Positions 108 to 18,513 of a stretch of DNA of 37,049 bases are shown piece after piece. A model generated the notes under the pieces. The model was not told where the DNA came from and ran no database searches. It was given only the letters and a program-made list of their open reading frames with translations. Position 1 is the first letter of the stretch, and each line of letters starts with the position of its first letter. Both the position numbers and the translations under genes were made by a program. The DNA comes from Candidatus Woesearchaeota archaeon (GTDB taxonomy: Archaea > Nanobdellota > Nanobdellia > Pacearchaeales > GW2011-AR1), in NCBI GenBank assembly GCA_964546165.1, contig CAZJIV010000003.1:1-37049 (forward strand). The letters run 5' to 3'.

Positions 108-112
108 TTAAC

Positions 113-2247: not shown

Positions 2248-2418
2248 ATGAAAGATAGAGCTAGTTTTACTTTGGACAAAGAGACACTGGATATCCTGGA
2301 TAAGCTGTCTGAGAAGAGCAAGTACAGGAACAAGTCGCATATTGTCGAAGAGGCGATAAAACTTCTGGGTAAGAACGAGGACCTGGAAGATAAAGAAAAG
2401 GAGGTGAAAAATGAATAA
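2248..2418 (+). CDS. ribbon-helix-helix (CopG/Arc/MetJ-type) DNA-binding protein, 56 aa
   Basis: Not in the ORF track (<60 aa). My translation is MKDRASFTLDKETLDILDKLSEKSKYRNKSHIVEEAIKLLGKNEDLEDKEKEVKNE*. It shows a beta-strand (ASFTLD), helix (KETLDILDKLSEKS), loop and helix (SHIVEEAIKLL) pattern like CopG. A GAGGTGA SD lies 4-5 nt upstream. The stop at 2416-2418 overlaps the ATG of the giant gene. Confidence 0.75.
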   Translation: MKDRASFTLDKETLDILDKLSEKSKYRNKSHIVEEAIKLLGKNEDLEDKEKEVKNE

Positions 2419-5400
2419 AAAATCTATGTACAGGCTAAGCGCTGCAACTGTGGGGGTTGCAGTAATTCTTGCCTTGGTGATTTTTGTTCTTCTGCCGGTG
2501 CTTTCTTCACAGCCGATTTCAAAAAGCAGTTACACGCTTGGAGAAAATGTAAAAATAGATTTGTCAGGACAAAATGTAAGTGTCAAGATAATCACACCTT
2601 CGACATCTTATGTTGTCCGAGCCTCTGGCTCTTTCATCTTTCAACCAAACGAAACAGGAATGTATCATGTTATTTTCGGAAACGAGACACAGATATTTAC
2701 TGTTGTTGATAACGGGCAATTTGAAAATGTAAGCCAGGAGAGCAATCAGTTTTCAAACCAATCTGAAATTCCAAACGGAGAGGTTGTGCCCCCAGGGTAT
2801 TCTTCGCAGATTGTGCTTGGGCAACCTGTAGTCTGGAGAAAAAGTCTGGAACAAAATTCAAGCGGGACTGTAAATCTTACACTCCCCCCTGAAGCGAAGA
2901 ATATTGATGTTAACAGATTTAATGGGGAGAAAGTGGAGAAAGCAAATTTCAAGGTTTCTGGTTCTCAGGATTTCTCACTTCTTGAATCAATTGTAAATTT
3001 CATAACAAATAACCCTTCAAATAAAACAAATCAATCTGTGAATGTTAATGTTACAGACAATTCTACCTATCAAGTTGAGTATGAAACTCCTGCGCCTTAT
3101 TCCGTTGAGAGCGACCTGAAAAATGGCAAGAGGGTCAAGATGGTTGATCCAACAAATCTTTACTACCAAAATGTTCTATCTTTTACAAATCTTCCAGAGA
3201 GCCTTAACATTACAAATCCCTCTAATGTTAAAATCTATTGGGTAGAGAACAAGAGTTATATCCCTGCCAAAAGTGTTGTTGACACGAATGGAGATGGAAT
3301 TTATGATTATGTTGAATGGATAACACCCCACCTCTCTAATGAAACTTTTGATATCATAGTTGCGAGTCAAGCAGAACATCTTGATGCAAACAGAACTTTT
3401 GTATCTGATATTTACAATCAAATTAAGTCTCTTGATGGGGTTTGGAGCGAGACAATTCCTGACGGAGATTTTGTTAGAGTAACTTTTGAAAAAAATTTAA
3501 CGAACGCCAATGATATTACTTTGTTTCCAAAGATAATTTCAGGAACTCCAAAAATTGTTGTCTACGAAAAAAATAAGACAGTTCCGGTGGCAGAATTTAA
3601 TTCTTTGTTGAATGATACCTATAATATTGTCTCTCTGCTTAATTTAAATGGAACTCAGGATGTTTTTGATCTTCAGGTCTTGAATGGTTCTGTTCAATTT
3701 GATGAGATCGTTGACCCAACAGCAAAGGTCGTTTACAACACTTCTGGAACTTTTAATTTCACTGTTCCTGCCGGTATAACAAATGTTACAATAAAAGCCT
3801 GGGGAGCAGGCGGTGGCGGCGGCTCTGGTGGTGGAGCGGGACTTACGGGAGGTACTGGAGGGGCTGGAGGTTTTGCACAAGCTACTGTAACGGTTACACC
3901 TGGTAATAATCTTACTGTTGTTGTCGGTTCAGGGGGTGGTCCAGGAGGTGCAGGAAGTCAAGCTGCAGGAGCAGGCGGCGGCGGCGGAGGAGTTACAGGA
4001 GTTTTTAATGGTGCCATGACTCAGACAAATGCACTTACCGTTGCAGGAGCAGGCGGCGGCGGCGGCGGCGGCGATAATTCAGCTGTTAATGGTGGAGCAG
4101 GAGGCGCCGGTGGAGGAACAAGTGGAGTTGCAGGTACTGCTGCAGGAACTGGAGGCGGTGGCGGTGCAGGAACACAAACTGGCGGTGGAGCTGCTGGAAG
4201 CGGTGCAGGAAGTCCAACTGCAGGAAGTGCTCTTACAGGTGGAAATGGGGGAATAGGACAGGGAACTGCCGGGACTGGTGGCGGCGTTGCAGGAACTCCA
4301 AATGGTGGAACTGGTGGAAATGATGGAAGCTTCTCTGGAGGCGGCGGTGCAGGAGGTGCAGGCTACTTTGGCGGTGGCGGCGGCGGCACTAATAGTGGAG
4401 GCGCAAACTCTGGAGGCGGCGGTGGCGGCGGCTCTGGCCGTGTAACAGGAACATCCACAACTTTAACAGCAGGTTCCGGAACAAGTGTTGCTAATTCAGG
4501 AGATACAGATTATCAATCAGGTTTTGGTGTTGGGGGTTCTGCAGGGGCAGGAAACAATGGTCCTGGTGGAAATGGGGGTTCAGGGCTTATAGTCATAAGT
4601 TATATTTATTCAAATCCCACAATAACATGGAATGATTCAACTGTTGATTTTGGAACACATCTTCAATCTGGAGGCAACAGGAGCAATTCGACTTTAATTT
4701 ATTCCGGGGGAACAAATGATAATGTTGCTGTTTCCTGTTCGAGCGGAGATTGTTCAAGCATAACAACTAATTTTACTTCTCTAAGTCTTACTTCCGGACA
4801 ATCTTCCCGAGTTTATTTTACATGCTCTAATGTTACATCCGGAAGCTTCTCAGCAGTTTATGGGGTAACCTCTGACCAAAGTCCGTTCCCTGACACAATA
4901 ACAGTTTCCTGCAGCATGCTCCCACCTCCTTGGTATAATACAACTTTTAATTATTGTAAAAATATTACAATTGTAAACAGCGGCACTACTGCATTGACAA
5001 ATTTTCCTTCATATGTAAATATAACAAACTTCACTAATATGGACCCCACCTTGGATGATTTGAGGTTTGTAAACACTTTTTGTAACAATAGCGGGAGTGC
5101 TTTGCCTTTTGAAATTGAAAGCAGGGATTCAAATCATGCTGACGCTTGGGTCTTGACAAATCTCTCGACAGGAAACACAACAATTTCTGTTTATTATGGA
5201 AACACAACTTCTGTAAGTTCTGTTCAAAATGCAAGTGCCGTTTGGGGAAGCAGTTATATCGGAGTTTGGCATTTGCAGAATAGCAGTGGAAGCCTTAATG
5301 TAACAGACGCTTCTATTACAGGAAATGATGGAACAAATTCCGGGGCTACATTAACATCCGGTTTGATTGATGGGGCAGGAAGTTTTAATGGGGCCAGCAG

Positions 5401-8400
5401 TTATGTGAGCCTTCCGAATTCATTAACTTCTTCAAATGAATTTACTGTTTCTGCATGGTTTAAGACAACTGCAAATGGGGTAATATTCAGTGAGCAGAAT
5501 ACTGCTTACAGCGGGACTCCAAGTTCGTGGGATCCTGTCATGTATGTTGAGAGTACTGGACTTTTGCACGGGGGAATTTATACTGGAAGCATACCTGCTC
5601 TTGAAAGTTCTTCTGCAGTAAATGACGGAAACTGGCACAGAGGAACAGTAATTGTTGATACTGCAAATGCAAATCAATCTTTGTTTGTTGACGGTTCTTA
5701 TGTTGGAAGCGCTTCAGGAACTCCCGAGACCGCAGCATCCACTTACTATTATCTTGGAACTGGTTATACAAACAGCTGGACTAATACGAATAACGGCTGG
5801 TATTTTTTTAATGGTGCAATAGACCAAGTTGAACTTTCTAGTTCTTTGCTTTCTTCTTCATGGATTAAACAAAGTTATAATGCAGAAGCAGATGCAGGCT
5901 CTTACACTTTTTTTGGAAATGAAATACTTGCTCCCACTGTAAACAGACCTCCAACTACCCCAACAAACATTCAATGCAATGGGAATAACAATTGTAATAT
6001 AAACATAAATGATACAGTTACTCTTAAGGCAAGTGGTTCTACAGATTCTGAAGGAGATGCAATTACTTATGTCTTGGAAGCTTCTTTAGAGAATGATACT
6101 ACAACTTTGAACTCTACAGGGGCTAGTCTTTCTGGAGAAGGTGCTCCTACGACTACAGCATATACGAGTGCAGGAACTAATAGTTTTGTAGTTCCAACAG
6201 GAGTTACAAATGTTGTTGTTAAGGCTTGGGGTGCAGGCGGTGCTGGTGGAAGCGGCGGAAGCGATCCAACTAATGGTCAGGGAGGTAATGGAGCCGGCGG
6301 TGGTTTTGCAACCTCTAATTTAAGCGTTAGTGCTGGACAGACTCTTAATGTTCTTGTTGGTGGTGCCGGTCAGCCGGGTGTTGTTGCAGGAACCACTACT
6401 GCTGCAGGTGATGGTGGTGGCGGCGGAGGAAGGTCTGAAATTAACAGAAGCGGTACTGTCCTCTTGGTTGCTGCAGGTGGAGCCGGCGGCGGTGGCGGCG
6501 ATAATTCAGCAGGCGGCGGCAGTCAGCCAGGCGGCGCTGGTGGTGTTGGAGGGGGAACTACAGGGGGTGCTGGAACTCCTTCAAATAATGCTGGTGCAGG
6601 CGGCGGCGGAACTCAAAGCTCTGGCGGAGCTGCAGGAACAGGTGGTGCTACTTCTGGGACTGCAGGAAGCGCAAGAACAGGAGGACGAGGTGGTGATAAT
6701 AGTGCTGGGACAACAGGAAATGGCGGAACTGGTGGTCTTGGCGGCGGAGGAAATGGAGGCCAAGCAAGCAGTTCTGCTTATGGCGGTGGCGGTGGCGGTG
6801 GAGCTGGCTACTATGGCGGTGGCGGCGGAGCATCTTCTGCTGCAGGTGATGGTGGAGCCGGCGGTGGTGGCGGAGGCTCATCTTATGTCACTGGATTAGA
6901 TACTTCAACATCTTCAGGAAGTGGACAGAATGCAGGGAATAATATTGATACAGACTATTTAACCTATTCAAGTAATGCGGGTCATGGCGGTCCAGGGGCC
7001 AGTTATTGTACAGATGGTTCATGTGTGGGAACTTCTGGAACTGATGGGCTTGTTGTTTTAAGTTATATTACTGTAACAGGAAATGATACTAATTCCAGTT
7101 ATGTCACATATAACAATGTTGGGAGTGATTATCATCTTGTTACGAAAATTACTGTTACTGTAAATGTGACAGGATATGACCCAAGAGTCTCTGCAGGATA
7201 TTCAGATAATAAGCCAGATTTGTGGGTTGAAGCTTATAATGGGGGCTCGTGGATTTCTCTTGGAAAACTTAATCTTCCTTCTCTCTATACCGGAAGCGGG
7301 ATAAATACAACCGCCAAGAATTTCTCTGTGATAACCACTACTCCATCAGTCTTGGATAGCTGGAATGATACTTCAAATCAAGATATAAGAATTAAGGCAA
7401 TTTATATGGACACCAATTCTTCTTCGGCAGATAAAATAAACTATAGTAATGTTTGGGTTTCTATTGAGGGACATAAATGGGCTGTTATAGGAAATCATTC
7501 CGAATCAGGAAGTTTCGTATGGAACACTACTAGTGTTCCTCCACAGACAGGAGTTGACTTAAGGGCAAGAGCGATAGATTTGAATGGAAGTGATTCATAT
7601 TCAGATTATTATACAAAGGACTCTTTTATGAGCATAAAGAACAATTACCCTCCGACTGTTGCTATTAGCTATCCGGTAAATGGCTCTACGATGAGAGATG
7701 TCACTCCTCTTTTAGATGTTTCAACAAATGACACTGTGAACGCTCTTTGGTATTCTGTTAATGGCGGAACAAACCAGACGCTCTGCACTTTCTGTACCGG
7801 AGAATATCTTGTTAAGTATTTACATTTACCTGAAGGAATTAATACAGTAACTGCTTATGTAAATGATACCATTGGTAGGATTGGGAAATATTCGAGTTCA
7901 TTTAATATAAGTTTAAACGACAGTTATTATGACAATTATACAGACAACTCTTCAATAGCTCAGATAAATGGGGTAGTCTGGAATCCCGGAAGAGTTAATT
8001 ATGAAAGTGAAACATTGGAACATGGAACTTTCTTTGATGGTTTTGAGTCAGGGTTGCTTTCTTCGAATTGGACAACTTATACTGATAATACTTATGGAGA
8101 AATACTTGTTGATTCTTCAAATGGACCTTATGATGGAAGTTATCAAGTCTTAATGGACTCCAGTACAAACAATAATTATGCACTTGAGGAACTTATAACA
8201 AATTATGATTTTTCAGGAGCAAGCAACATAATGTTGAACTTTGCTGAGAGAGAATGGGCTGATGAAGATAATCCTTGCCCTGCAACCTGGAGCGGACACA
8301 ACGATTGTGACGGTGTTGCATTCACATGTGACGGAACAAATTGGTATCTGCTTTACAATCTTGTTGGGAGCAACAGTACTTCCACTTATGATTTAAAGGG

Positions 8401-11400
8401 TCCAATAAATGTGTCTGCAAGCCCTTACTTTTGTTCAACGGTTGAATCAACATTCGCAATAAAATTCCAACACTATGACAATTTCCCTCTGACCACAGAT
8501 GGGATAGGGTTTGATGATATTAACGTGAGTTTTGATAAAACGACTATAAAGAAAGCTAATTTCACCTCCTACTCAATTAATACCTTGGATAGCATAACAA
8601 GAATCACAAATGTTACTTGGGATGAAAATGGAACAGGGATTGGGAAGAATATCACTGTTCAATTGAGTGCAGACAACGGGGCAAACTGGTACAATGCAAC
8701 AGAGGGTTCTGGACTAATTGTTTATCCTGGAAATGCTCTTCTTTACAGAGTTTTATTTGCTGCATCAAGACCAACTAATTTCACTTTTGGCAATTTGACT
8801 ATTAACTGGAGCAGCCAGGCAGTTTCTCTTCCAAATATAACAATTAATCACCCCATTAATGGTACCACTTTGAAGGATGTCACACCCACCTTAAATGTAA
8901 GTGTTAACCAAATTGTTAATGCTCTTTGGTACTCTGCTGATGGTTCTGCCAACAAGACAATGTGCGTTAATTGCAATGCTTCAATAACATACCTCCATTT
9001 GCCAGAGGGAAGCCATAGTGTTTTTGTATATGCAAATAATACTGCAGGACAGATATCTTCCAATAATGTATCTTTTTCAGTATATATGAATTACAGTTAT
9101 TATGATAATTATACGGACAACTCTTCTCTTGATCCCAGCAAAACAAATTATCTTATAAATTGGACTCCCGGTCAGATTGCTTTCAAAAAGGAACCACCAC
9201 AACAAAAGACATTTTTTGACGGTTTTGAATCAGGGATAATAAGTTCAAACTGGACAACTTATGAAAGTAGTACGTTTGGGGAAATACTTGTGGATTCATC
9301 AAATGGACCTTATGATGGCACCTTCCAGGCTTTGATGGATTCTACAGCCAATAATAACTATGCACTTGAGGAACTTATAACAAATTATGATTTTTCCGGA
9401 GCCGAAAATATTGTGTTGACTTTTGCTGAAAAAGAATTCACCGATGAAGATAATCCTTGCCCTGCAACTTGGACAGGACATAATAATTGCGATGGCGTTG
9501 CATTCACGTGTGATGGAAATACTTGGCACCTACTTTACAATCTTGTTGGGAGCAACAGCACTAATACTTATGGAATAAAAGGGCCAATTAACATATCTTC
9601 TAATCCTAATTTCTGTTCTCAGATTAATTCCTCTTTTGCTGTGAAGTTCCAACACTATGACAATTTCCCTGTCACTAGTGACGGAATAGCATTTGATGAT
9701 ATTAATTTGAGTTGGGACGTGCCAACTGTGAATGCTGCAAATTTTACTTCTTATTCGATAAGCACTCTTAGTAAGATAAGGGGAATCACAAATGTTACTT
9801 GGGGAACTAGTGGAGCGAGTTCCGGAAATAATATAACGGTTCAGCTTAGCGCTAATAATGGTGCAGACTGGTTTGATGCAACCAATGGACAGAATGTAAC
9901 CCTTGGAACTGCGTCAGGAAACAATTTGCTTTATAGGGTTTTTTTCAATGCATCAAATACAAATCAATTTTCCTTAAACAATATGACAATAAACTGGACT
10001 GACTTTGGCTTGCCTTCCATTGTTATAACATCTCCTCTTAATAAGACTTATCAGGTGAATGTTACACATCTTGATTATGTTATAACGGGCAGTAACTTAA
10101 GTTCCTGTTGGTATAGTCTTAATGGAGGAGCAACAAACCATACAATGAGCTGCACAGGGAGCACTGTCAGCGGAATTGGGGCTGCTGAAGGTTCTAACAC
10201 ATGGATTGCCTATGTGAATAATACTGGAGGGTATCTAGCTTCATATCCTGTGACTTTCTTTGTTGATACGCAAAAACCAAATCTTACATTAAACGCTCCT
10301 GATAACAACACGCAATTTAGTACAGGAACAGTGCAATTTAATTGGACTGCTGATGATAATCTTGATTCAAGTCCGTTATGTAATCTTACTGTTGGTGGAA
10401 TCCAGAGAGCTTCAATTTCTTCAACTGCAGGAACCCCTATACTCTATAATGTAACAGGGCTAACAAATGGGAATTATAATTGGTATGTTGTATGTTCAGA
10501 TGAAGCCGGGAATACAAATACTAGTGGGACGCGAAAGTTTAACATTAATATTCAGACAGTTTTGAAACAGGTTGTTACGGGCTCAGGAACAACATCAGGA
10601 GCAGTTACATATGTGACTCTCCCTACCCCTTTATCAAATATTTCAAAAGCATTTTCAGTGATAAGCTATTCACATACTATTTCAAATTCTTTTGAGAATA
10701 CATTCAAGTCTTCAAAATTAATTAACACAACGACTTTAGCAATTTATGCTGCTGGAGCAGCTTCTCCTGTTAGTTTCCGTTATGCTATTTTTGAATTCAC
10801 TCAAGACAGTCCAATCAATGTTCAGCGTATTACGATGACAATTCCGACCGGTCCAACCCTCCCCCAATACTTTAATATCCCAAGCCCTGTTAATATGTCA
10901 ACGTCCTTCATGATTTATGAAGGCCTTACGCACTATGGGACTTACAGCAATGTTGGTTCACGTTCTTATAACAGAAATAGACTTCTTAATTCAACCACTG
11001 TAGAATATAATGTTGGGGCTGCACCGAATACAGGACCCCAGAATGATACTGTTGAGGTTGTTGACTGGAAAGATTCAAAGTTGGTTGACAGTGTTCAGAG
11101 TGGTTTAACTGCACTTGCAACAACCGCGACTTCTACGACAGTCACACCTCCTATTTCTGTGGATCCAAACAGAACTTTGCTTTTCATAGATTACATGACT
11201 GGCAGTGGGAGCGCATTTACGGAACCACCTTCGCAATTAGGTGTTAGGGCAAATCTTGACAGCAATGGACACATAACTCTTGATCGTTCTTCGACGGGAG
11301 CGCAGGTTCTGATTTACTGGCAACTTGTTGAATTCAAATCAGGGCATGTTCAAGTTCAGCATGTGCAAGGGGATTTCTCGAATGGTCAAGGCACAAAAAA

Positions 11401-14400
11401 CTTTATTTTGCAGACACCTGTTGATACAAGCAGGAGTGCTGCATTTGGAACAACCATGGAACCTTTCGGACTTTCAGGTGCGATGTCTTCTGATACGACA
11501 GGCGGAGATATAAACAGTGCTATGTTCTCAATTTATCTTGTTAATAGCAGTTATGTAAGAGCAACTAGAGGGAGTACGACCGGGACGGCCAGTGTGGGGA
11601 TGCAGGTTCTGTACTTTACAGGAGCACCAACAATTTCAAACGTTAATGCAAGCACCGTAACAAATACAGGAGCTACAATTACTTGGGATACAAATGTGGA
11701 TTCTAACTCAACTGTGAATTATTTACTTCCAAATGGAACTGCCCTTTCTGCATCAGATCCCTTCTTAGTTACGAGCCATTCAGTTCCAATCACAGGATTA
11801 TCTGCAAATACAACTTATTATTATAATGTGACCTCGTGCAATGCAAATGGATGTTCAAATCAGACAGGATTCAATTTCACAACAACAATAACTCCTCCCA
11901 CTGCACCGGTTGTTTATCTGTTGAATCCTGCAAACAATGCTTTTTCAAATGTTTCGACCGTCGAATTTTCGTATAACACAACAGATGTAAATAACAATAT
12001 TGCTAATTCAACACTTATTTTGAACAATGTAAAAAATCAAACTAATCAATCTGTGATTGTTTCTTCTGCTGTCAATAATTTTACAGCCTCTCTGCCTGAT
12101 GGAATCTACAACTGGACTGTGAATGTTACAGATAAAACTAATTTAGTTGGGACGAGCAGCACTCAGAGAAAACTTACTGTTGATACTCATGCGCCTTACA
12201 GCATAACTGTTAATTATCCTCCAAACAATACCATATTTTATTCTTCATATGTGGATATAAATTTCACAGTTTTGGATAATCTGGCTTCAACCTTAAAGTG
12301 TAATTTAATTGCCAACAACAATGTCATAGACACTAATTCGAGTGTGAAAAATAATACAGTAACTACCTTTGCAGAATTCTTAGTTGTTGGGAACTATTTA
12401 TGGAATATTACCTGTTTTGATGGAGCAAACAATTCAATTACAAGTTCATTGTATAATATCACTGTATTTGATGTTCCTCCTGAAGTGAATTTAGTGACTC
12501 CAAATAATACATATTTCAACACCTCCAATGTTGGATTGGCTTATAACACTTCAGACAATAATGGAGTTGTTTTGGCGAAACTTATCTTGAATGGGACTGT
12601 AAATGCCACAAATCAGTCTGTGATAGTCAATGGTTCTACTAATTATTTCAACGTAACTTTGCCAGAAGGATTCTACAACTGGACTGTTAATGTAACAGAT
12701 ACAAGTGGATTAAATTCAACAAACGCAAGCAGATACTTCACTGTTGATTTGCATCCTCCACAAGTTAATCTTAACCTTCCTGCGAATGGTACCAGCGTAA
12801 ATTTCTCCACCTTAAATTTCAATTTTACAGCGATTGATAATTTTGCAAAGAACATGTCTTGTAATTTTACATTTGGAGATACCCATGTCATAAACATCTC
12901 TGCTCAAAATGATACTCTTACAGATTTCCAGGTTAATTTGACTAACGGGATAAATAATTGGTATGTTGCTTGTTCAGATAATGCAGGAAATACAAATACG
13001 AGCGAGTCAAGATGGCTTAATGTTTCAGAACCTCCTACAATAAATCTTACAACATTGAATAATACTAATTTCAATACTTCAAGCATCTCCCTCCATTACA
13101 TCCCTCATGACAATCAAGGCATAGATGTTTGTTCTCTTTATCTTGACGGTTCTCTTAATCAGACCACTGGCCCCGGAGAAGTTACAAATGATGTGGATAA
13201 TCAATTTACAATTGGCAGTATCTCCCAAGGATACCATACATGGTATATTATCTGTAATGATTCTTTTGGTCTGCAGACCCAAAGTGTGACAAACCGGTTT
13301 TTAGTGAACCTTGGAAATATTAAGATTACATTGCTTGCTCCTCCTGATGGCGCAAATATATTCTCAGACACTGTGAATTTCAGTTATAATGTTACTGAAA
13401 ACATAGACCCAACTCTTGATTGTAACATTACAGTAAACAATATTGTCCTTGATAATTATACTGCAACTGCTGGAGCAATAACAAATCGCTCTGTTAAGTT
13501 CCTGAGCGGTGGAACAAAATTCTGGAATGTTACCTGTATTGATAGCGCTTACAATGTTAACACCTCTGTGACGAGAAACTTCACGCTTGCATTCCCTCCG
13601 GTTGTTTCACTGATAAGTCCTGTGAATGGAACTGCAGTGAATAGCTCTGCTGTTGTTTTGAAGTATAATGCTTCAGACCCAAACCTTAACATTGCAAATG
13701 CAACTTTGATCCTGAATGGAATTGCAAACCAGACAAATCAAAGTGTTATAGTTAATGGACAGATAAGTAATTTCACATTAAATCTCAGTGATGGAAATTA
13801 TAATTGGACTGTGAATGTAACAGATACGACTAATCTTCTTGGAACAGCTAATACTACAAACTTTACTGTTGATACTCATCCGCCAAACGTGACTTTGAAT
13901 TCTCCTGCAAACGGTAGCACGCAGACATGGAATAATCTTACGTTGAATTTCACTGTTAGAGATAATCTTGCTCAGAGCACGCTTTGTAACATTTACATAA
14001 ACGGAACTTTAAATAAAACTGGTGTTGTTGCGCAAAACAATTCCAATACGATTTCATATGTAATTGAACATGATGGAAATTACAGTTGGAATGTTCTTTG
14101 TAACGATTCTGCAAATAATACCGGAGCTAGCCCGGTTGTTAATTTCAGCATCAAAGCTCCGCCAAATGTCACACTTGTAAATCCTCCTGATGGAAATTTG
14201 ACAAACTCAAGCCATATACAATTTGAATACATAGGGGATGATCCTATTGGGCTTGCAAACTGTTCCTTGATATTTGACGGAGCAATTAATGATACTGTTA
14301 ATAATGTTGACAGCAACATAGTCAATGTCTTCAATGTCTACGGGGTTCCTCAAGGAGTTCATAATTGGACTGTTGGATGTACTGATGTTGACGGAAATTT

Positions 14401-15649
14401 CTTTGCTCCTCCTAACAGAACTTTGACAGTGGACCAGAGCCCCCCTGTAATTAATTTGGTTTATCCTCTGAATAATTCCGGAATTTATTTTGGAGGTGGA
14501 ACCTTAGTTTTGAAGTGGTTCGCAAATGATACTTACGATTCTGTTATTAAGTGCAATGTATATGTGGACGGTTCCCTCAAAACACCAAACAAACTTGTAA
14601 CGAGCGGAGTTCTTGCAACACAAATTGAAACTCTCAGTCTTGGATATCATTACTGGAATACCACTTGCTGGGACAGGTCCTACAATTATAATTCGAGCAC
14701 ACCTTATTATTTTAATTTCACTTATCCGGATTTTGTGATTAACGGAAGCAGCATTTCAGTGAATGATACAGCTCCCAAAGAAAATTCCACGATACAGATT
14801 AATGTTACTGTATTCAACAAAGGCGGAGCTGATGCTTCAAATGTCAAGGTAAGTTTGTTTAATGGAAATCCTGATTTGGGTGGAACACAAATAGGAACTA
14901 ATCACACACTATATCTTGCCCATAATAGTTCAAATAAGACATCTTTTGTATGGGCTGCTTCAATCGGAACTACGCAACTCTTTGCGGTTGTTGACCCTCC
15001 TCTTGCAACAAACGGTTCTTTCCATGAATGGAATGAAAGCAACAATGAATTCAGCAAAAACATTACGGTTGGAAGCTGGCAGTTTATCTATGGGAAAATA
15101 AATACTTCAAGCAATTTCCAACTCGCCGATAGTTCAAATTCATCTTTGCAGGATTGGGCATCTAATCTTGTCAACAATGGAAATATCTTTGTTACAGATT
15201 CTGATTCGTCGATTGACTGGACTGCCTTGGTTGCTCTTGGAAAATACATTAACGGTACAAGTACTACAAATGATTTCTCTGATGTAGACAGCCTTTTGGG
15301 AATGACCGGATTCAACGATTCTGTTACAAATATTTATACGAATTCAGGAACTCCAAAAAACACAACAGACTTTAATGTTTTTGGCAGTCCTATTACCGGA
15401 GTTCCTATTGCAGACTCCATAAACAATTCAAACTTTACTACCGGGATTTTCTGGGACGGGTCTGATGATGTTTCTTCAGACGGACAGTTCGATGTTTCTG
15501 ACAAAGAGGATTTGGTATTTGGCTCCAAGATACATCGGAATACCCAAGGAACTTTTGGAGTTTATGATTATGAGATAAGAGTTCCGGCTAAACTTAGGAG
15601 TTATCACGGAGGTTCTTCTCCGGGAGTGATTTATGTTGAACTTGGTTAA
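2411..15649 (+). CDS. giant (4,412 aa) multidomain cell-surface adhesin-like glycoprotein
   Basis: Uninterrupted 13,239-nt ORF with a GGAGGTG SD at 2400-2406. N-terminal hydrophobic signal/anchor (LSAATVGVAVILALVIFVLLPVLSS). Modular beta-rich domains are listed as separate features. N-x-S/T sequon density is very high. No C-terminal TM or sorting signal. Confidence 0.95.
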   Translation: MNKKSMYRLSAATVGVAVILALVIFVLLPVLSSQPISKSSYTLGENVKIDLSGQNVSVKIITPSTSYVVRASGSFIFQPNETGMYHVIFGNETQIFTVVDNGQFENVSQESNQFSNQSEIPNGEVVPPGYSSQIVLGQPVVWRKSLEQNSSGTVNLTLPPEAKNIDVNRFNGEKVEKANFKVSGSQDFSLLESIVNFITNNPSNKTNQSVNVNVTDNSTYQVEYETPAPYSVESDLKNGKRVKMVDPTNLYYQNVLSFTNLPESLNITNPSNVKIYWVENKSYIPAKSVVDTNGDGIYDYVEWITPHLSNETFDIIVASQAEHLDANRTFVSDIYNQIKSLDGVWSETIPDGDFVRVTFEKNLTNANDITLFPKIISGTPKIVVYEKNKTVPVAEFNSLLNDTYNIVSLLNLNGTQDVFDLQVLNGSVQFDEIVDPTAKVVYNTSGTFNFTVPAGITNVTIKAWGAGGGGGSGGGAGLTGGTGGAGGFAQATVTVTPGNNLTVVVGSGGGPGGAGSQAAGAGGGGGGVTGVFNGAMTQTNALTVAGAGGGGGGGDNSAVNGGAGGAGGGTSGVAGTAAGTGGGGGAGTQTGGGAAGSGAGSPTAGSALTGGNGGIGQGTAGTGGGVAGTPNGGTGGNDGSFSGGGGAGGAGYFGGGGGGTNSGGANSGGGGGGGSGRVTGTSTTLTAGSGTSVANSGDTDYQSGFGVGGSAGAGNNGPGGNGGSGLIVISYIYSNPTITWNDSTVDFGTHLQSGGNRSNSTLIYSGGTNDNVAVSCSSGDCSSITTNFTSLSLTSGQSSRVYFTCSNVTSGSFSAVYGVTSDQSPFPDTITVSCSMLPPPWYNTTFNYCKNITIVNSGTTALTNFPSYVNITNFTNMDPTLDDLRFVNTFCNNSGSALPFEIESRDSNHADAWVLTNLSTGNTTISVYYGNTTSVSSVQNASAVWGSSYIGVWHLQNSSGSLNVTDASITGNDGTNSGATLTSGLIDGAGSFNGASSYVSLPNSLTSSNEFTVSAWFKTTANGVIFSEQNTAYSGTPSSWDPVMYVESTGLLHGGIYTGSIPALESSSAVNDGNWHRGTVIVDTANANQSLFVDGSYVGSASGTPETAASTYYYLGTGYTNSWTNTNNGWYFFNGAIDQVELSSSLLSSSWIKQSYNAEADAGSYTFFGNEILAPTVNRPPTTPTNIQCNGNNNCNININDTVTLKASGSTDSEGDAITYVLEASLENDTTTLNSTGASLSGEGAPTTTAYTSAGTNSFVVPTGVTNVVVKAWGAGGAGGSGGSDPTNGQGGNGAGGGFATSNLSVSAGQTLNVLVGGAGQPGVVAGTTTAAGDGGGGGGRSEINRSGTVLLVAAGGAGGGGGDNSAGGGSQPGGAGGVGGGTTGGAGTPSNNAGAGGGGTQSSGGAAGTGGATSGTAGSARTGGRGGDNSAGTTGNGGTGGLGGGGNGGQASSSAYGGGGGGGAGYYGGGGGASSAAGDGGAGGGGGGSSYVTGLDTSTSSGSGQNAGNNIDTDYLTYSSNAGHGGPGASYCTDGSCVGTSGTDGLVVLSYITVTGNDTNSSYVTYNNVGSDYHLVTKITVTVNVTGYDPRVSAGYSDNKPDLWVEAYNGGSWISLGKLNLPSLYTGSGINTTAKNFSVITTTPSVLDSWNDTSNQDIRIKAIYMDTNSSSADKINYSNVWVSIEGHKWAVIGNHSESGSFVWNTTSVPPQTGVDLRARAIDLNGSDSYSDYYTKDSFMSIKNNYPPTVAISYPVNGSTMRDVTPLLDVSTNDTVNALWYSVNGGTNQTLCTFCTGEYLVKYLHLPEGINTVTAYVNDTIGRIGKYSSSFNISLNDSYYDNYTDNSSIAQINGVVWNPGRVNYESETLEHGTFFDGFESGLLSSNWTTYTDNTYGEILVDSSNGPYDGSYQVLMDSSTNNNYALEELITNYDFSGASNIMLNFAEREWADEDNPCPATWSGHNDCDGVAFTCDGTNWYLLYNLVGSNSTSTYDLKGPINVSASPYFCSTVESTFAIKFQHYDNFPLTTDGIGFDDINVSFDKTTIKKANFTSYSINTLDSITRITNVTWDENGTGIGKNITVQLSADNGANWYNATEGSGLIVYPGNALLYRVLFAASRPTNFTFGNLTINWSSQAVSLPNITINHPINGTTLKDVTPTLNVSVNQIVNALWYSADGSANKTMCVNCNASITYLHLPEGSHSVFVYANNTAGQISSNNVSFSVYMNYSYYDNYTDNSSLDPSKTNYLINWTPGQIAFKKEPPQQKTFFDGFESGIISSNWTTYESSTFGEILVDSSNGPYDGTFQALMDSTANNNYALEELITNYDFSGAENIVLTFAEKEFTDEDNPCPATWTGHNNCDGVAFTCDGNTWHLLYNLVGSNSTNTYGIKGPINISSNPNFCSQINSSFAVKFQHYDNFPVTSDGIAFDDINLSWDVPTVNAANFTSYSISTLSKIRGITNVTWGTSGASSGNNITVQLSANNGADWFDATNGQNVTLGTASGNNLLYRVFFNASNTNQFSLNNMTINWTDFGLPSIVITSPLNKTYQVNVTHLDYVITGSNLSSCWYSLNGGATNHTMSCTGSTVSGIGAAEGSNTWIAYVNNTGGYLASYPVTFFVDTQKPNLTLNAPDNNTQFSTGTVQFNWTADDNLDSSPLCNLTVGGIQRASISSTAGTPILYNVTGLTNGNYNWYVVCSDEAGNTNTSGTRKFNINIQTVLKQVVTGSGTTSGAVTYVTLPTPLSNISKAFSVISYSHTISNSFENTFKSSKLINTTTLAIYAAGAASPVSFRYAIFEFTQDSPINVQRITMTIPTGPTLPQYFNIPSPVNMSTSFMIYEGLTHYGTYSNVGSRSYNRNRLLNSTTVEYNVGAAPNTGPQNDTVEVVDWKDSKLVDSVQSGLTALATTATSTTVTPPISVDPNRTLLFIDYMTGSGSAFTEPPSQLGVRANLDSNGHITLDRSSTGAQVLIYWQLVEFKSGHVQVQHVQGDFSNGQGTKNFILQTPVDTSRSAAFGTTMEPFGLSGAMSSDTTGGDINSAMFSIYLVNSSYVRATRGSTTGTASVGMQVLYFTGAPTISNVNASTVTNTGATITWDTNVDSNSTVNYLLPNGTALSASDPFLVTSHSVPITGLSANTTYYYNVTSCNANGCSNQTGFNFTTTITPPTAPVVYLLNPANNAFSNVSTVEFSYNTTDVNNNIANSTLILNNVKNQTNQSVIVSSAVNNFTASLPDGIYNWTVNVTDKTNLVGTSSTQRKLTVDTHAPYSITVNYPPNNTIFYSSYVDINFTVLDNLASTLKCNLIANNNVIDTNSSVKNNTVTTFAEFLVVGNYLWNITCFDGANNSITSSLYNITVFDVPPEVNLVTPNNTYFNTSNVGLAYNTSDNNGVVLAKLILNGTVNATNQSVIVNGSTNYFNVTLPEGFYNWTVNVTDTSGLNSTNASRYFTVDLHPPQVNLNLPANGTSVNFSTLNFNFTAIDNFAKNMSCNFTFGDTHVINISAQNDTLTDFQVNLTNGINNWYVACSDNAGNTNTSESRWLNVSEPPTINLTTLNNTNFNTSSISLHYIPHDNQGIDVCSLYLDGSLNQTTGPGEVTNDVDNQFTIGSISQGYHTWYIICNDSFGLQTQSVTNRFLVNLGNIKITLLAPPDGANIFSDTVNFSYNVTENIDPTLDCNITVNNIVLDNYTATAGAITNRSVKFLSGGTKFWNVTCIDSAYNVNTSVTRNFTLAFPPVVSLISPVNGTAVNSSAVVLKYNASDPNLNIANATLILNGIANQTNQSVIVNGQISNFTLNLSDGNYNWTVNVTDTTNLLGTANTTNFTVDTHPPNVTLNSPANGSTQTWNNLTLNFTVRDNLAQSTLCNIYINGTLNKTGVVAQNNSNTISYVIEHDGNYSWNVLCNDSANNTGASPVVNFSIKAPPNVTLVNPPDGNLTNSSHIQFEYIGDDPIGLANCSLIFDGAINDTVNNVDSNIVNVFNVYGVPQGVHNWTVGCTDVDGNFFAPPNRTLTVDQSPPVINLVYPLNNSGIYFGGGTLVLKWFANDTYDSVIKCNVYVDGSLKTPNKLVTSGVLATQIETLSLGYHYWNTTCWDRSYNYNSSTPYYFNFTYPDFVINGSSISVNDTAPKENSTIQINVTVFNKGGADASNVKVSLFNGNPDLGGTQIGTNHTLYLAHNSSNKTSFVWAASIGTTQLFAVVDPPLATNGSFHEWNESNNEFSKNITVGSWQFIYGKINTSSNFQLADSSNSSLQDWASNLVNNGNIFVTDSDSSIDWTALVALGKYINGTSTTNDFSDVDSLLGMTGFNDSVTNIYTNSGTPKNTTDFNVFGSPITGVPIADSINNSNFTTGIFWDGSDDVSSDGQFDVSDKEDLVFGSKIHRNTQGTFGVYDYEIRVPAKLRSYHGGSSPGVIYVELG
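3728..4610 (+). other. glycine-rich domain, copy 1 (within the giant CDS)
   Basis: Opens VVYNTSGTFNFTVPAGITNVTIKAWGAGGGGGSGG. About 250 aa of G/A/S/T-rich low complexity follow. Closes GGNGGSGLIVISYIY. The DNA is locally GC-rich (GGC/GGT/GGA runs) in an AT-rich gene. Confidence 0.8.
4925..5925 (+). other. DUF2341-like plus LamG/concanavalin-A-like lectin module (within the giant CDS)
   Basis: WYNTTFNYCKNITIVNSGTTALTNFPSYVNIT...LRFVN...LPFEIESRDSNHADAWVLTNLSTGNTTISVYYGNT matches my memory of DUF2341. GVWHLQNSS...DASITGNDGTNSGATLTSGLIDGAGSFNGASSYVSLP...FTVSAWFKT...GNWHRGTVIVD...LFVDGSYVGS resembles LamG-type jelly rolls. Confidence 0.6.
6158..7070 (+). other. glycine-rich domain, copy 2 (within the giant CDS)
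   Basis: Opens AYTSAGTNSFVVPTGVTNVVVKAWGAGGAGGSGG and closes GTSGTDGLVVLSYIT. It has the same architecture and boundary motifs as copy 1. Confidence 0.8.
7640..10009 (+). repeat. tandem duplication of a 1,185-nt (395-aa) two-domain unit inside the giant CDS (7640-8824 and 8825-10009)
   Basis: The two units run in parallel. Examples: PVNGSTMRDVTPLLDVSTNDTVNALWYSVNGG / PINGTTLKDVTPTLNVSVNQIVNALWYSADGS. Also FFDGFESGLLSSNWTTY...DEDNPCPATWSGHNDCDGVAFTCDG...KFQHYDNFPLTTDGIGFDDINVSF / FFDGFESGIISSNWTTY...DEDNPCPATWTGHNNCDGVAFTCDG...KFQHYDNFPVTSDGIAFDDINLSW. Confidence 0.9.
10553..11620 (+). repeat. four divergent ~85-90-aa repeats of an unrecognised beta-type module (within the giant CDS)
   Basis: The units end ...VSFRYAIFEF, ...NDTVEVVDW, ...AQVLIYWQLVEF and ...ASVGMQVLYF. 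Three of them open with VQ (VQRITMT, VQSGLTA, VQVQHVQ). Sequons are sparser here than in flanking regions. Confidence 0.5.
11621..11890 (+). other. fibronectin type III domain (within the giant CDS)
   Basis: GAPTISNVNASTVTNTGATITWDTNVDSNSTVNY...VPITGLSANTTYYYNVTSCNANGCSNQTGFNFTT is a classic FN3 pattern (ITWxT ... GLxxxTxYY). Confidence 0.75.
11891..14722 (+). repeat. array of alternating Ig-like modules, about five ~190-aa two-module units (within the giant CDS)
   Basis: A-type modules carry NQSVIV...(D/E)G.YNWTVNVTD...FTVD(T/L)HxP, with YNWTVNVTD coded near 12105, 12672 and 13797 and variants near 13230 and 14361. B-type modules carry DNLA...CN...WN(I/V).C.D.A.N. A similar pair lies at 10010-10552. 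Confidence 0.75.
14723..15070 (+). other. CARDB-like domain (within the giant CDS)
   Basis: YPDFVINGSSISVNDTAPKENSTIQINVTVFNKGGADASNVKVSLFNG...TSFVWAASIGTTQLFAVVDP...EWNESNNEFSKNITV follows the CARDB pattern (V.N.G...A..V.V.....ExNExNN). Confidence 0.65.
15071..15646 (+). other. C-terminal ~190-aa domain of the giant protein, homologous to the two downstream stand-alone proteins
   Basis: It shares motifs at the start, middle and extreme C-terminus with ORFs 15841-16638 and 16704-17480 (alignment given in findings). No family recognised. Confidence 0.75.
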
Positions 15650-15711
15650 AATGGGAGAAATGAAGAGTATGGTTGACAGATTGGCTTTAAAAGATTTTTG
15701 TAATGGCAATC

Positions 15712-15749
15712 TTTTTACGACGACAAATTTTCCTTTCTTTCCCTTTTTC
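15712..15749 (+). terminator. oligo-T tracts downstream of the giant gene (candidate archaeal terminator)
   Basis: T5 at 15712-15716 and the T-rich run TTTTCCTTTCTTTCCCTTTTT at 15728-15748, about 60-100 nt after the stop. Archaeal termination commonly uses T-tracts. Confidence 0.35.
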
Positions 15750-15758
15750 TGGGAAACA

Positions 15759-15766
15759 TTTATAAA
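15759..15766 (+). promoter_or_regulatory. TATA box (TTTATAAA) preceded by purine-rich GAAA(CA), for the 15841 gene cluster
   Basis: Consensus octamer 75 nt upstream of the ATG at 15841. It is followed by a 7-bp hairpin (ACAGTAG-6 nt-CTACTGT, 15790-15809). A strong SD GGAGGTG lies at 15824-15830. Confidence 0.5.
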
Positions 15767-15840
15767 TAAATCTTATCTATTACTCTATAACAGTAGTTAT
15801 TGCTACTGTAGAGATAATTAAAAGGAGGTGTGAGAGTTAC

Positions 15841-16638
15841 ATGAGACAATCTTATTGGTTGTGCCTTTTGGCAGTTCTAGTGGTCGCTTTGTTTGCGTTG
15901 CCAGCTGTTACAGCTGTTCAGCCTGTAGGTGCTACAGTCACTGAAAACGGAAACCAAACTGCGCCTTTAGATGCAGCAGGAAGCCAAGCAGCAATTGCAG
16001 GTAATGTCAGTGATATAAATCTTTATGGTTATTCCTCGACTCAGTCCTGGCAAGGTTACTATGGTAATGTCAGCGGTACAATTCAATTAGCAGATGGAAG
16101 TGACCATGTTCTTTACAATTGGTCTCAGACTAATCCTACTGGTGAAGTTTATTCATCCACAAACAGTACTATATCTTGGCTGAATGTGCAGTGTTTTAAC
16201 TTTACAGCTACCGGTGCAGACAATCCTTCAGGAGAAACTGCTGGCGGTACAAACCAGAAAGGGATGAATTTGACACAGTTGCAGAACATATTCGGAATCA
16301 ATCAAACTGCTATAGACAGTGTTAACAACACGTTTGACCTTATTGGAGGAGCAAATGACCACTTGTTGTTCTACACAGCAAATCTTCAGTTTGATCCATC
16401 AGAATGTCAGACAGCAAGGTTGTTCACAGATTCCAGTGGGGCTCAAATACAGGGTCATTTTGAAGAAGTGATACAGTATGAGCCTACGACAAATAGTGTC
16501 ATCTGGACATCGGTCATAAACAGAAACTTTGTTGGCTTTGATGACGTTCAACATGACTTCGAAATGTTAGTTCCAGAGAACGGTCACGGAACAGACACTG
16601 CTACAACTACGTATTACTTTTACGTAGAAATCGAGTAA
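15841..16638 (+). CDS. secreted protein, paralog A of the giant protein's C-terminal domain
   Basis: Sec-type signal peptide (LCLLAVLVVALFALPAVTA|VQP). Strong SD. Homologous to 16704-17480 and to 15071-15646. Ends ...TTTYYFYVEIE*. Confidence 0.9.
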   Translation: MRQSYWLCLLAVLVVALFALPAVTAVQPVGATVTENGNQTAPLDAAGSQAAIAGNVSDINLYGYSSTQSWQGYYGNVSGTIQLADGSDHVLYNWSQTNPTGEVYSSTNSTISWLNVQCFNFTATGADNPSGETAGGTNQKGMNLTQLQNIFGINQTAIDSVNNTFDLIGGANDHLLFYTANLQFDPSECQTARLFTDSSGAQIQGHFEEVIQYEPTTNSVIWTSVINRNFVGFDDVQHDFEMLVPENGHGTDTATTTYYFYVEIE

Positions 16639-16674
16639 GGCCTAATTTTATTGTTTATAGTTATAGGGCCTTAC
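16635..16674 (+). other. 8-bp hairpin (GTAAGGCC...GGCCTTAC, 24-nt loop) overlapping the stop codon of the 15841 gene
   Basis: Read directly: 16635-16642 is the reverse complement of 16667-16674. It is GC-rich relative to its surroundings. Role unknown (mRNA processing, stability or attenuation). Confidence 0.35.
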
Positions 16675-16703
16675 TTGGGGTGATTGTAGCTGGGACTTGA
16701 TTT

Positions 16704-17480
16704 ATGAGAGACAGAAACATGAACAAAGAAACAAAAGACGGTGAAACAATCTTCAGAGCTCTTGCTCTGTTGGGGATCATTTCCCTATTTGGGATTTTAA
16801 TTCTATCTATGATTAGTGCTGCTTCAGTCCCTGTTCCTCCAAATGTTTTGCAATCCGTTTCAAATGATAGTGCAGGCTCGGTTCCTGCAATGAAATTCAA
16901 CATATCTGGAGGTGTAATTGCAACGTTTAATCTTACTGCGAGAGTTCAGGATCCGAGATGGAAAGGTTTTGTTGGAAATGTCACAGGAACTTTTGCATTG
17001 CAAGATTCTACAGGGTCAACGCTTTTTGATTGGGCGCTTACAAGTGTTTCGGGTGCAATATTTGCCACGAGAAACAGCGGCGCGATAACTTGGACAAATG
17101 TTAATTGCTCCAATCTAACAGGGCTTAATGCGGAGAATGTTGCACTAAATCTTAATGACCCTAATGATAACCTTAACCAGACATTCTCATATTCGCTTCC
17201 AACAAACAGCCCTACATTCTCGGTTGGCTCCAAGATTATCCCTGCACAAGAATGTCCTGTTCTTAATACTTATAACTCGACAGGAGCTCAAAGCAATTAC
17301 TTTTATGAGATGGCTCTTTATGCTACAGGTTCACAAATACCAATTTATGCAACTATAATGGAGCAGGGGGTTGTTGGTTTTAATGGAGATCGTTATGATT
17401 TCCAGGAGATTGTTCCCCAGAATGGAACTGTGGGATCTGCGCCAACGGCATATTATCTTTACGTCCAGCTAGGAAGTTAA
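16704..17480 (+). CDS. secreted protein, paralog B of the giant protein's C-terminal domain
   Basis: N-terminal hydrophobic segment FRALALLGIISLFGILILSMISAAS (alternative ATG at 16719). It shares the same motif set and the same two Cys positions as paralog A. Ends ...PTAYYLYVQLGS*. Confidence 0.85.
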   Translation: MRDRNMNKETKDGETIFRALALLGIISLFGILILSMISAASVPVPPNVLQSVSNDSAGSVPAMKFNISGGVIATFNLTARVQDPRWKGFVGNVTGTFALQDSTGSTLFDWALTSVSGAIFATRNSGAITWTNVNCSNLTGLNAENVALNLNDPNDNLNQTFSYSLPTNSPTFSVGSKIIPAQECPVLNTYNSTGAQSNYFYEMALYATGSQIPIYATIMEQGVVGFNGDRYDFQEIVPQNGTVGSAPTAYYLYVQLGS

Positions 17481-17484
17481 TAAA

Positions 17485-18513
17485 ATGGATGAGAAAAATG
17501 GAAAAAAATACTTCGGAAAAATTTTGTTATTTCTTTTAGCCGAAGCTTTTCTACTCTTTATTATAATCTCGACCTTTGGAGGAGGTGTTGTTGGCTATGG
17601 TGGTTCTGGAGGTAATGTTACTGTACAGAGCATCCTTAAAGTTGGAAATGTTTCGCCTGAAGTTGTAAATGTAACTGTTAATGATTATGCTACTTCAATA
17701 GACCTTACACCAAATTCAACCAAGAATATAAGCTGTCAAGCACTTGTTCGTGACTGGAATGGAGAAGGCAATATTACCAATGTAACTAGTGAGTTCTTTA
17801 TATCTCCCGGAGTTTATAATGGAGGATATGCTGCAGGGCCAAATGATAATAATTATCATTATACAAATAACAGTTGTTATATTAATGATTCATTTGGAAC
17901 GTGGCATGGGATGGTAGATGATCCTTATATTGCGCTTGCGACCTGCAACTACAGCATTTGGTATTATGCATATCCTGGAACTTGGAACTGCACTGTTTTT
18001 GTTGATAGTATTCCTAAGCTTAATGCGACAGGGAGCAATACAACTACCATAAATCAACTTTTGGCTGTTGGACTTCCACCTTCTATAAATTTTGGAACGG
18101 TGAACGCAACATACGTGTCTGATGAGAATTATACAAATGTAACTAATATGGGGAATGTTGAACTTAACCTTAGCCTTTATGGTTATGCACAGACTCTTGG
18201 GGATGGTTATGCAATGAATTGTAGTGTTCCTCTTTCGACTTATCATCCTAAGATACCTATAGGATTTGAAAAATATAATCTTACAGTGTCCCATCCAGGG
18301 GGACTTACTTTAACTCAATTTGAAACGAATTACACGAACCTTACAAGTACTTACACTGTTAGGAAGTTTAATCTTAATTTCAGGGAGAATGATGCAGCTC
18401 AGGGAACTGATGATACTAATGCAACTTACTGGAGAGTTTATGTTCCAAATGGTGCTGCGGGGACCTGCACAGGAAACATAGTCTTTGGAGCAAGCACTTC
18501 CCCAGGAAGTTAA
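17485..18513 (+). CDS. hypothetical protein with an N-terminal hydrophobic segment and Ig-like/beta-rich ectodomain
   Basis: The ATG lies 4 nt after the preceding stop. The N-terminus is KKYFGKILLFLLAEAFLLFIIISTFGGGVVGYGGSGG (hydrophobic helix plus Gly linker). Cys- and sequon-rich beta-type sequence follows. The C-terminal YWRVYVPNGAAGTCTGNIVFGA weakly echoes the VPxNG...YV motif of its neighbours. Confidence 0.85.
   Translation: MDEKNGKKYFGKILLFLLAEAFLLFIIISTFGGGVVGYGGSGGNVTVQSILKVGNVSPEVVNVTVNDYATSIDLTPNSTKNISCQALVRDWNGEGNITNVTSEFFISPGVYNGGYAAGPNDNNYHYTNNSCYINDSFGTWHGMVDDPYIALATCNYSIWYYAYPGTWNCTVFVDSIPKLNATGSNTTTINQLLAVGLPPSINFGTVNATYVSDENYTNVTNMGNVELNLSLYGYAQTLGDGYAMNCSVPLSTYHPKIPIGFEKYNLTVSHPGGLTLTQFETNYTNLTSTYTVRKFNLNFRENDAAQGTDDTNATYWRVYVPNGAAGTCTGNIVFGASTSPGS

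Follow-up and report, generated by a model that had tools for sequence, protein, structure and literature searches.

The window analysed here, a 37,049-nt stretch from a Candidatus Woesearchaeota archaeon (assembly GCA_964546165.1, contig CAZJIV010000003.1), encodes a giant surface protein of 4412 amino acids (aa) (ORF and translation, 2411–15649, + strand). It is followed on the same strand by two small proteins, the secreted protein A (265 aa, 15841–16638) and its stand-alone paralog B (258 aa, 16704–17480). We show that the last ~190 residues of the giant protein (15071–15649, hereafter Gct) and the stand-alone proteins A and B are copies of one new domain. This domain occurs in three contexts: as small proteins with a signal peptide, at the C-terminus of large surface proteins and in the N-terminal ectodomain of an ATPase with two transmembrane (TM) segments. 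Both the domain family and its gene cluster appear to be undescribed; no description of either was found in the literature searched. We favour, with a probability of about 0.5, the reading that the domain is a self-associating extracellular beta-rich module which links giant adhesins and the membrane ATPase to an assembly of A and B.

Gct, A and B are copies of one domain

A preliminary description of this DNA, made from the sequence alone, had aligned the end of the giant protein with A and B along a domain of ~190 aa, and the peptides quoted for this alignment were all recovered at their positions in the translations. By BLASTP, A and B are paralogous along their full length (E=2e-25, 27% identity). 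When the last 192 residues of the giant protein were compared pairwise with A and with B, significant similarity was restricted to the first ~40–50 residues (E=2e-4 and 3e-6). Profile–profile comparison by hhalign extended the homology to the whole domain, as had been claimed. A 9-sequence Gct profile and a 40-sequence A profile aligned over 171 columns (93.8%, E=1.7e-7), and a 67-sequence Gct-only profile aligned with a 122-sequence A/B profile over 173 columns (98.6%, E=6.2e-16), from the SWQ motif through the last residue of both sides. A hidden Markov model (HMM) of Gct alone also matched A/B-like proteins directly, with E between 1e-7 and 1e-10. A chance or compositional similarity was rejected on the basis of the profile–profile scores (93.8% and 98.6%).

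The core motifs SWQGYFGNV, G.I.L.D….W, GE[IV]YAS, D.V..TF, [HY]D[FY][EQ]M.VP and the terminal YYFYVE[LI] are common to four subfamilies (A, B, Gct and the ATPase copy). In the AlphaFold2 (AF2) models of A and of the end of the giant protein (Ig+CARDB+Gct), the secondary-structure elements follow each other in the same order. Both cysteines that had been noted as common to A and B, C118 and C189 in the numbering of A, show no variation across the A family and are conserved in the B-like group; Gct has neither.

A is composed of a signal peptide (residues ~1–25), a conserved N-terminal extension (~26–67) and the core (68–265). The signal is of the classical n-h-c type, ending at VTA/VQP, and leaves a polar mature N-terminus. 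We detected 700 homologs of A, of which the top 120 are 245–303 aa long and 49–69% identical; they are annotated in the source as ‘hypothetical protein’. Among GTDB species representatives the A family gave 342 confirmed matches, with several copies per genome, across Woese- and Pacearchaeota.

Two A-like proteins with additional regions were also observed. One (L072:8897–10678, 593 aa) appears to be a membrane-tethered form of A, with an N-terminal TM segment and a long Asn/Gln/Thr/Gly-rich low-complexity linker, ending in an A-like domain that includes the N-terminal extension. In the other (L080:10831–12417 and an adjacent 119-aa open reading frame (ORF)), an A-like domain is fused to a 400-aa N-terminal region and the reading frame is apparently broken by a frameshift, which may point to a pseudogene or to an error of assembly.

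The domain matches no known family or fold

Scanned singly, A, B, Gct and C, the Cys-rich product of the gene following B, matched no Pfam or NCBIfam family (Pfam E≤1 for A, B and Gct) and no PDB sequence, in line with the preliminary description, which had not recognised the domain. Nothing recurrent appeared when 40 members of the A family and 9 of the Gct family were scanned against Pfam and NCBIfam, and the A-family profile gave no match at E≤10 among all PDB sequences. A Foldseek search of PDB and BFVD with the AF2 model of A, which reaches a predicted local distance difference test (pLDDT) score of 74.8 only, returned best matches at E 0.3–0.5 and TM-scores below 0.2. A Foldseek search with the Ig+CARDB+Gct model gave predominantly Ig and CARDB matches and was uninformative on Gct.

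The weak, non-significant neighbours of A in its Foldseek search were jelly-roll lectins, cohesins and lyases of family PL7. They bear on a different explanation, in which the domain would be a lectin-like ligand-binding or enzymatic beta-sandwich acting independently, with paralogs that adjoin by local duplication and do not bind each other. Further invariant positions of the A family indeed include His, Asp and Glu (H174, D239 and the EDGHGTD motif), which might make up a metal site or an active site, and A-like genes are also found without an adjacent giant gene. However, these candidate catalytic or metal residues are not common to B, Gct or the ATPase copy. Moreover, neither the strict position of the domain (the extreme C-terminus, or the extreme N-terminus of an ectodomain) nor a gene order kept over ~35 kb would be expected of a generic binding domain. 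We therefore consider an independently acting domain improbable.

The fold comparison with CanA, TasA-like and thread subunits, which had been proposed earlier, brought no match either by Foldseek or by PDB profile search. A, B and Gct have no match to the Pfam TasA family (PF12389), and Foldseek of the A model against PDB, where the best E was 0.48, listed no TasA, AbpA, CanA or thread structure. A does not have the class III signal or the retained hydrophobic helix of type IV pilins and archaellins; the AF2 helix covers residues 3–19 only. When the genes of the window and of the clusters at loci L036 and L073 (see below) were scanned against Pfam, no PapD-like chaperone or usher was present; a sub-threshold CooC_C match inside a CarboxypepD_reg region was the sole chaperone-usher-related signal. 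Gct did not match the C-terminal domain (CTD) families of the type IX secretion system (T9SS) (Por_Secre_tail, CHU_C), and one noise-level CHU_C match (E=0.064) was seen in 1 of 40 A-family members.

Gct closes the C-terminus of many large surface proteins

The giant protein of the window starts with a signal or anchor and continues with two Gly-rich blocks, LamG/Big/fn3-type repeats (Pfam Big_13, fn3, Laminin_G), a CARDB domain and Gct. Its sole hydrophobic segment lies at residues 13–31 and no C-terminal TM segment was predicted, which agrees with the preliminary description. The CARDB domain (14726–15058) stands directly before Gct. It belongs to Pfam CARDB (PF07705; E=3.6e-10, 40.4 bits with a cut-off of 22.7) and matches the PF1109 CARDB structure 3idu by Foldseek with a TM-score of 0.79–0.85, whereas Gct, A and B are not CARDB domains. 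The Ig+CARDB+Gct model was obtained with a pLDDT of 93.7 and a predicted TM-score (pTM) of 0.83.

The Gly-rich blocks occupy residues ~470–740 and ~1240–1500 (window 3800–8000), each after a ‘VKAWGAGGGGG’-type motif, and lift the local G+C to 0.45 compared to ~0.37 elsewhere. Matches to Pfam Gly_rich_2, DUF2341 and Laminin_G_3 are found in related giants.

We surveyed Gct with a profile covering the end of CARDB and Gct, counting cluster representatives at E≤1e-3. The profile retrieved 2718 representatives, 721 of them at E≤1e-30. The best 150 matches all end at most 3 residues from the C-terminus of their proteins, which are 175–6104 aa long, the shortest being probably contig-end fragments. 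Gct is thus the extreme C-terminal module, always directly after CARDB, of hundreds of surface proteins. A shorter class of CARDB-Gct proteins (~611–632 aa) was also found upstream of the ATPase fusion described below (L001:1250–3127, L017:1486–3384, L019:615–2450, L044:1358–3214, L049:569–2452); therefore, one cluster can encode at least two Gct-ended proteins.

An obligate C-terminal Gct on very many proteins would fit a sorting or docking function just as well. According to this explanation, Gct would follow the logic of the T9SS CTD or of S-layer anchoring and would serve to have many different cargo proteins recognised and fastened to the envelope. A and B would constitute a receptor or a lattice, as a canopy or S-layer-like sheet and not as a linear fibre, and both Gct and the ATPase ectodomain would insert into it as pseudo-subunits. 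The strictly terminal position in all of the best 150 matches, on proteins of widely differing size, would fit such a role, as would the two or more kinds of Gct protein per cluster (giant and ~620 aa). That A is so strongly conserved and present in several copies would also fit a lattice protein engaged in many contacts, and the ATPase ectodomain, with about four Ig-like domains, could span a pseudo-periplasm. On the other hand, neither the known S-layer families nor the T9SS CTD show any similarity to the domain, and S-layer proteins of archaea are as a rule larger and little conserved. Separately annotated S-layer genes are, in addition, among the top transcripts in a Woesearchaeota transcriptome (PMC11606122). 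Simple docking would also leave unexplained the complementary presence and absence of an N-terminal extension described below. All together, a pure sorting or docking function seems unlikely, although less so than an independently acting domain.

A HerA-type ATPase carries the domain in its ectodomain

In L036:5342–8740 and 18 other loci (e.g. L001:4926–8753, L031:4791–8159), 1–2 kb upstream of A-like genes, the domain is part of a 1040–1275-aa protein, an ATPase fusion whose full size range is 1040–1326 aa. The protein has a first TM segment at residues 31–49, an ectodomain at 50–685 and a second TM segment at 686–704, followed by a cytoplasmic DUF87/HerA P-loop ATPase. Its ectodomain begins with an A-like domain (56–247) and continues with two CarboxypepD_reg domains and further beta-rich sequence. 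The A/B profile aligned with this N-terminal domain by hhalign at 97.4% (E=1e-11).

The L036 ATPase (5342–8737) belongs to the HerA/FtsK superfamily, scoring 43.9 bits with Pfam DUF87 (cut-off 23.2) and 35.2 with HerA_C (cut-off 22), and matches PDB HerA 4d2i at E=1e-6. No NCBIfam equivalog cut-off was reached, similarity to CedD, TraC and TraD remaining far below the cut-offs. Judged from its sequence, the fused ATPase is a generic member of the HerA/FtsK/VirB4 superfamily. We found 77 relatives of the fusion, all in Nanobdellota, Pacearchaeota or Woesearchaeota and annotated merely as ‘DUF87/HerA domain-containing’.

Giant proteins, A-like proteins and the ATPase are encoded in a conserved cluster

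To describe gene order, six-frame ORFs of 81 A-centred loci (designated L) were classified with family HMMs. The domain family counts 97 A-like and 24 B-like members in these loci. In every case a B-like gene has an A-like gene on one side and C on the other. B belongs to a separate orthologous group, the nearest neighbour of a B-like protein being another B-like protein in 20 of 22 cases. The C family has 47 members in 43 loci, located after B. C of the window (342 aa, 17485–18513, + strand) has an N-terminal TM segment or signal; it was rejected as a fourth paralog, as hhalign to A/B and Gct reached at most 34%, which is non-significant.

A first cassette, giant (ending in CARDB-Gct), A, B and C in this order, is shared by about 20 genomes; it was observed complete in 16 loci including the window, and giant followed by A with B and/or C missing in five others. 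The giant protein together with stand-alone copies, noted in the window by the preliminary description, is therefore a recurrent module, found in these 21 loci. A second cassette is composed of the ATPase fusion, a ~108-aa protein, a ~285-aa coiled-coil protein, an A-like protein, a ~210-aa winged helix-turn-helix (wHTH) protein, a further A-like protein, a 10-TM protein with an HExxH motif, a ~460-aa secreted protein (fam8) and a giant protein. On two contigs, CAZXHH010000001.1 (L031+L042) and MWBV01000001.1 (L036+L073), the two cassettes are contiguous in overlapping loci. The second cassette thus runs straight into the first, forming one supercluster of ~35–40 kb. The ~450–480-aa secreted gene that precedes the giant gene in L024, L030, L031, L036, L046 and L084 belongs to the same family, fam8, as the first ORF of the window (92–1690). 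Since this family always precedes the giant gene, the contig probably breaks inside the cluster and the window probably represents its 3′ half.

As an independent check of synteny, six Gct proteins instead of A were taken as starting points. A, with or without B and C, was immediately downstream in four of the six (L083, L084, L086, L087), and a Gct giant of 6104 aa had the ATPase fusion before it and a second giant gene after it.

The 10-TM protein (~366 aa; L036:13219–14310, L031:12320–13432, L084:2198–3307) forms a family of 29 with invariant H235, E236 and H239 (HExxH) and D316. It has no PDB match; weak matches to Pfam Peptidase_M50 were obtained for 5 of 14 members, with a best E of 0.005. 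It may be an intramembrane metalloprotease resembling site-2 protease (S2P) and a candidate for maturing the secreted subunits. The ~206-aa wHTH protein, with an N-terminal ArsR-type domain (HTH_5, HVO_A0114-like), was seen in L036:10982–11617 and 33 other loci directly upstream of A-like genes, also where these stand alone. A 277-aa tyrosine recombinase (Phage_integrase, XerC/D-like) follows A-B-C in 8 loci (e.g. L073:12764–13597, L042:12840–13676, L084:19711–20544); it is not in the window, where a TyrRS gene follows C.

Shorter HerA-type ATPases, not fused to the domain, occur in variant clusters. In L027:894–5230 and L052:3295–7516, two adjacent paralogs of ~700–730 aa are found, one of them a DUF87/HerA ATPase without an A-like ectodomain; in clusters of this type, A-B-C stands after a ~1000-aa protein without Gct.

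These genes could also suggest an ATPase-driven trans-envelope conduit for exchange of DNA or protein with a host, by analogy with type IV secretion (T4SS)/Ced and type VII secretion (T7SS) systems. A and B would then form a tube on the ATPase ectodomain, with the giant protein as a host-binding tip. The HerA/FtsK/VirB4-superfamily P-loop, weakly similar to CedD, TraC, TraD and HerA structures, the fusion of a membrane-embedded ATPase to the domain that also forms the secreted subunits and the conserved accessory genes (10-TM HExxH protein with its weak M50 similarity, coiled-coil and wHTH proteins) would be in agreement with such a machine, and the shorter unfused ATPases accompany other A-B-C cassettes. 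However, all NCBIfam similarities lie far below the family cut-offs, VirB2, VirB6 or CedA-like components were not detected and nothing points to A forming a hollow tube. A conduit of this kind thus appears doubtful, about as much as an independently acting domain.

The N-terminal extension and a proposed model of assembly

In an alignment of the four subfamilies, a conserved segment precedes the core: AxAGNVTELNIxGY in A, EAGYISELNV in the ATPase and NISGGRIA..N in B. Gct does not carry this extension, the last CARDB strand leading directly into SWQ. MAFFT had suggested that the extension of A could be a remnant of the last CARDB strand; this is not supported, as hhalign alignments begin at SWQ and none extends upstream. 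The extension of A is near-invariant (A51, A53, G54, N55, T67), yet its pLDDT in the monomer model is 35–43. Such a combination of conservation and low pLDDT is the pattern expected if the partner lies in another chain.

The copies also differ in which sides are free. The N-side of Gct is taken by CARDB and its C-end is free; the extension of the ATPase copy is free while its C-side continues into the Ig-like stalk; in A and B both are free. This is what a polar hetero-polymer would be predicted to show, with the adhesin at one end and the membrane-rooted subunit at the other. The simplest model of this polar arrangement would thus be a fibre or stalk in which the adhesin lies distally, A and B in between and the ATPase-linked copy at the membrane. 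Chaperone-usher tip adhesins show the same pattern, the adhesin copy being without the extension that the subunits carry.

We infer from this a physical co-assembly, possibly polar and by strand donation, in which the ATPase would have a role. A and B would make up the bulk of a cell-surface structure in Woese- and Pacearchaeota (DPANN), possibly a polar fibre, into which giant CARDB adhesins would plug via their C-terminal Gct. The two-TM HerA/FtsK-type ATPase would be coupled to this structure via its N-terminal ectodomain copy, and the N-terminal extension would serve as the inter-subunit element, as in donor-strand systems. In favour of a location at the cell surface, all parts have a TM segment or a signal and are rich in N-glycosylation sequons, as is typical of archaeal surface proteins (227 in the giant protein, 9 each in A and B, 7 in Gct and 22 in C).

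Several observations weigh against a self-associating module. The Gct monomer model is complete and confident (pLDDT 93.7) without any complementing strand, and the low pLDDT of the A extension may merely reflect a shallow alignment (40 sequences, at least 49% identity). An identity of ~50–70% across a radiation of order or class level is unusually high for a pilin. There is no fold similarity to known filament subunits (Foldseek, PDB and BFVD). All components look Sec-exported from their sequences, which would leave the need for a cytoplasmic ATPase unexplained. In terms of gene order, some Gct giants have no adjacent A gene (L085), one of the six Gct proteins taken as starting points (5314 aa) has no partner nearby, many A-like genes are far from any Gct gene (L053, L056, L057, L059, L061), and A-B-C also occurs after ~1000-aa proteins without Gct (L021, L027, L029, L068).

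An extended version of the model can be proposed, in which A and B form the fibre or conduit of a new class of cell-surface organelle in Woese-/Pacearchaeota. It would carry interchangeable CARDB-Gct giants as tips, be rooted in and energised by the ATPase with its ectodomain copy of the subunit fold and be matured by the S2P-like factor, as a host-contact or exchange apparatus of these DPANN symbionts unrelated to type IV pili, TasA-like filaments, T4SS/Ced and T7SS. That all these parts hold together is speculative and, in our view, unlikely.

Comparison with known systems

The preliminary description had likened the arrangement to tip-adhesin and pilin systems, and this holds in part. As in chaperone-usher pili (tip adhesin FimH or PapG; FimA, FimF, FimG), the last domain of a large adhesin is homologous to small secreted subunits whose genes lie next to it, and the adhesin copy is without the N-terminal extension of the subunits. 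In contrast, the system described here belongs to an archaeon without outer membrane, has no chaperone or usher genes and includes a copy on a HerA-type ATPase, and no search identified its domain as an Ig-like pilin. Its fold matches no pilin, TasA, CanA or thread subunit.

TasA-superfamily archaeal filaments polymerise chaperone-free via an N-terminal donor strand (PMC12518558, PMC9715654, PMC9245690). Like the Sulfolobus thread 0406, Pyrobaculum AbpA and Pyrodictium CanA/CanX, the proteins described here are Sec-exported, ~20–27 kDa and beta-rich, with several paralogs per genome. They differ by having no match to Pfam TasA/Peptidase_M73, to a PDB sequence or, by Foldseek, to 7UII, 7UEG, 7PNB and 8AUR, while TasA-type systems have no giant-protein or ATPase fusion.

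The T9SS is an outer-membrane system of Bacteroidota. Its CTD, likewise a conserved beta-sandwich domain, is restricted to the extreme C-terminus of numerous large surface proteins; however, there is no sequence similarity, and the T9SS does not have stand-alone CTD paralogs among the most conserved proteins of the lineage. The T7SS (EccC/EssC; LXG toxins and their small WXG-like partners) likewise groups the gene of a membrane FtsK/HerA-superfamily ATPase with those of large polymorphic proteins, each having a domain related to small neighbouring proteins. In our case, by contrast, all components have a Sec-type signal, the common domain is beta-rich and extracellular and the ATPase carries its copy outside. 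The Pam pilus of the candidate phyla radiation (preprint) is a parallel case in a different system. None of the tip-adhesin/pilin systems, chaperone-free archaeal filaments, T9SS or T7SS has the same fold on the outer side of an ATPase.

Other features of the window

The fam8 gene (92–1690, + strand), directly 5′ of the giant gene, encodes a secreted protein of 532 aa with an N-terminal hydrophobic segment and a weak, sub-threshold PGF_pre_PGF match. Its N-terminal part is related to the corresponding part of the ~620-aa CARDB-Gct proteins (hhalign 97%). fam8, giant, A, B and C are all in the same direction.

The spacer between the giant gene and A (15730–15830, + strand) contains a T-rich tract (15730–15749), a TATA-like TTTATAAA (15759–15766) and a strong Shine-Dalgarno GGAGGTG (15824–15830), located 10 nt 5′ of the ATG of A. 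As read from the sequence, these signals would constitute a promoter and ribosome-binding site proper to A, and this fits a separate, higher expression of A.

Housekeeping genes lie 3′ of C, first a class-I Tyr/Trp-tRNA synthetase and a GTPase, then M16 peptidase, arginase, IMPDH and others. A 762-aa T2SSE-type ATPase (type IV pilus or archaellum assembly) is encoded 15 kb downstream (34028–36316); thus, type IV filament machinery is also present in this genome. The G+C content of the window is ~37%, and no tRNA, Rfam match or tandem repeat was found in it. A viral origin of the family was rejected, as IMG/VR holds no relatives and the window is free of tRNA, Rfam matches and tandem repeats. 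The nearest GTDB relatives are ‘archaeon isolate clean1337’ (69%) and then a Pacearchaeota metagenome-assembled genome (64%). With Pacearchaeota/Woesearchaeota metagenome-assembled genomes as the closest ones, the DNA comes from a DPANN archaeon within the Nanoarchaeota/Nanobdellota.

Implications

Little is known of how DPANN archaea present their very large surface proteins and reach their hosts, and the genes concerned are for the most part annotated as hypothetical. Here we define a new family of domains and, with A, a secreted protein of very high conservation, together with a rule for the ends of hundreds of giant adhesins and a ~35–40 kb cluster that links all of these to a membrane ATPase. 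If strand donation or an ATPase-rooted fibre proved true, the system would represent a further, new type among archaeal surface filaments or secretion-like machines and would help in the search for host-interaction genes of uncultured Nanoarchaeota.

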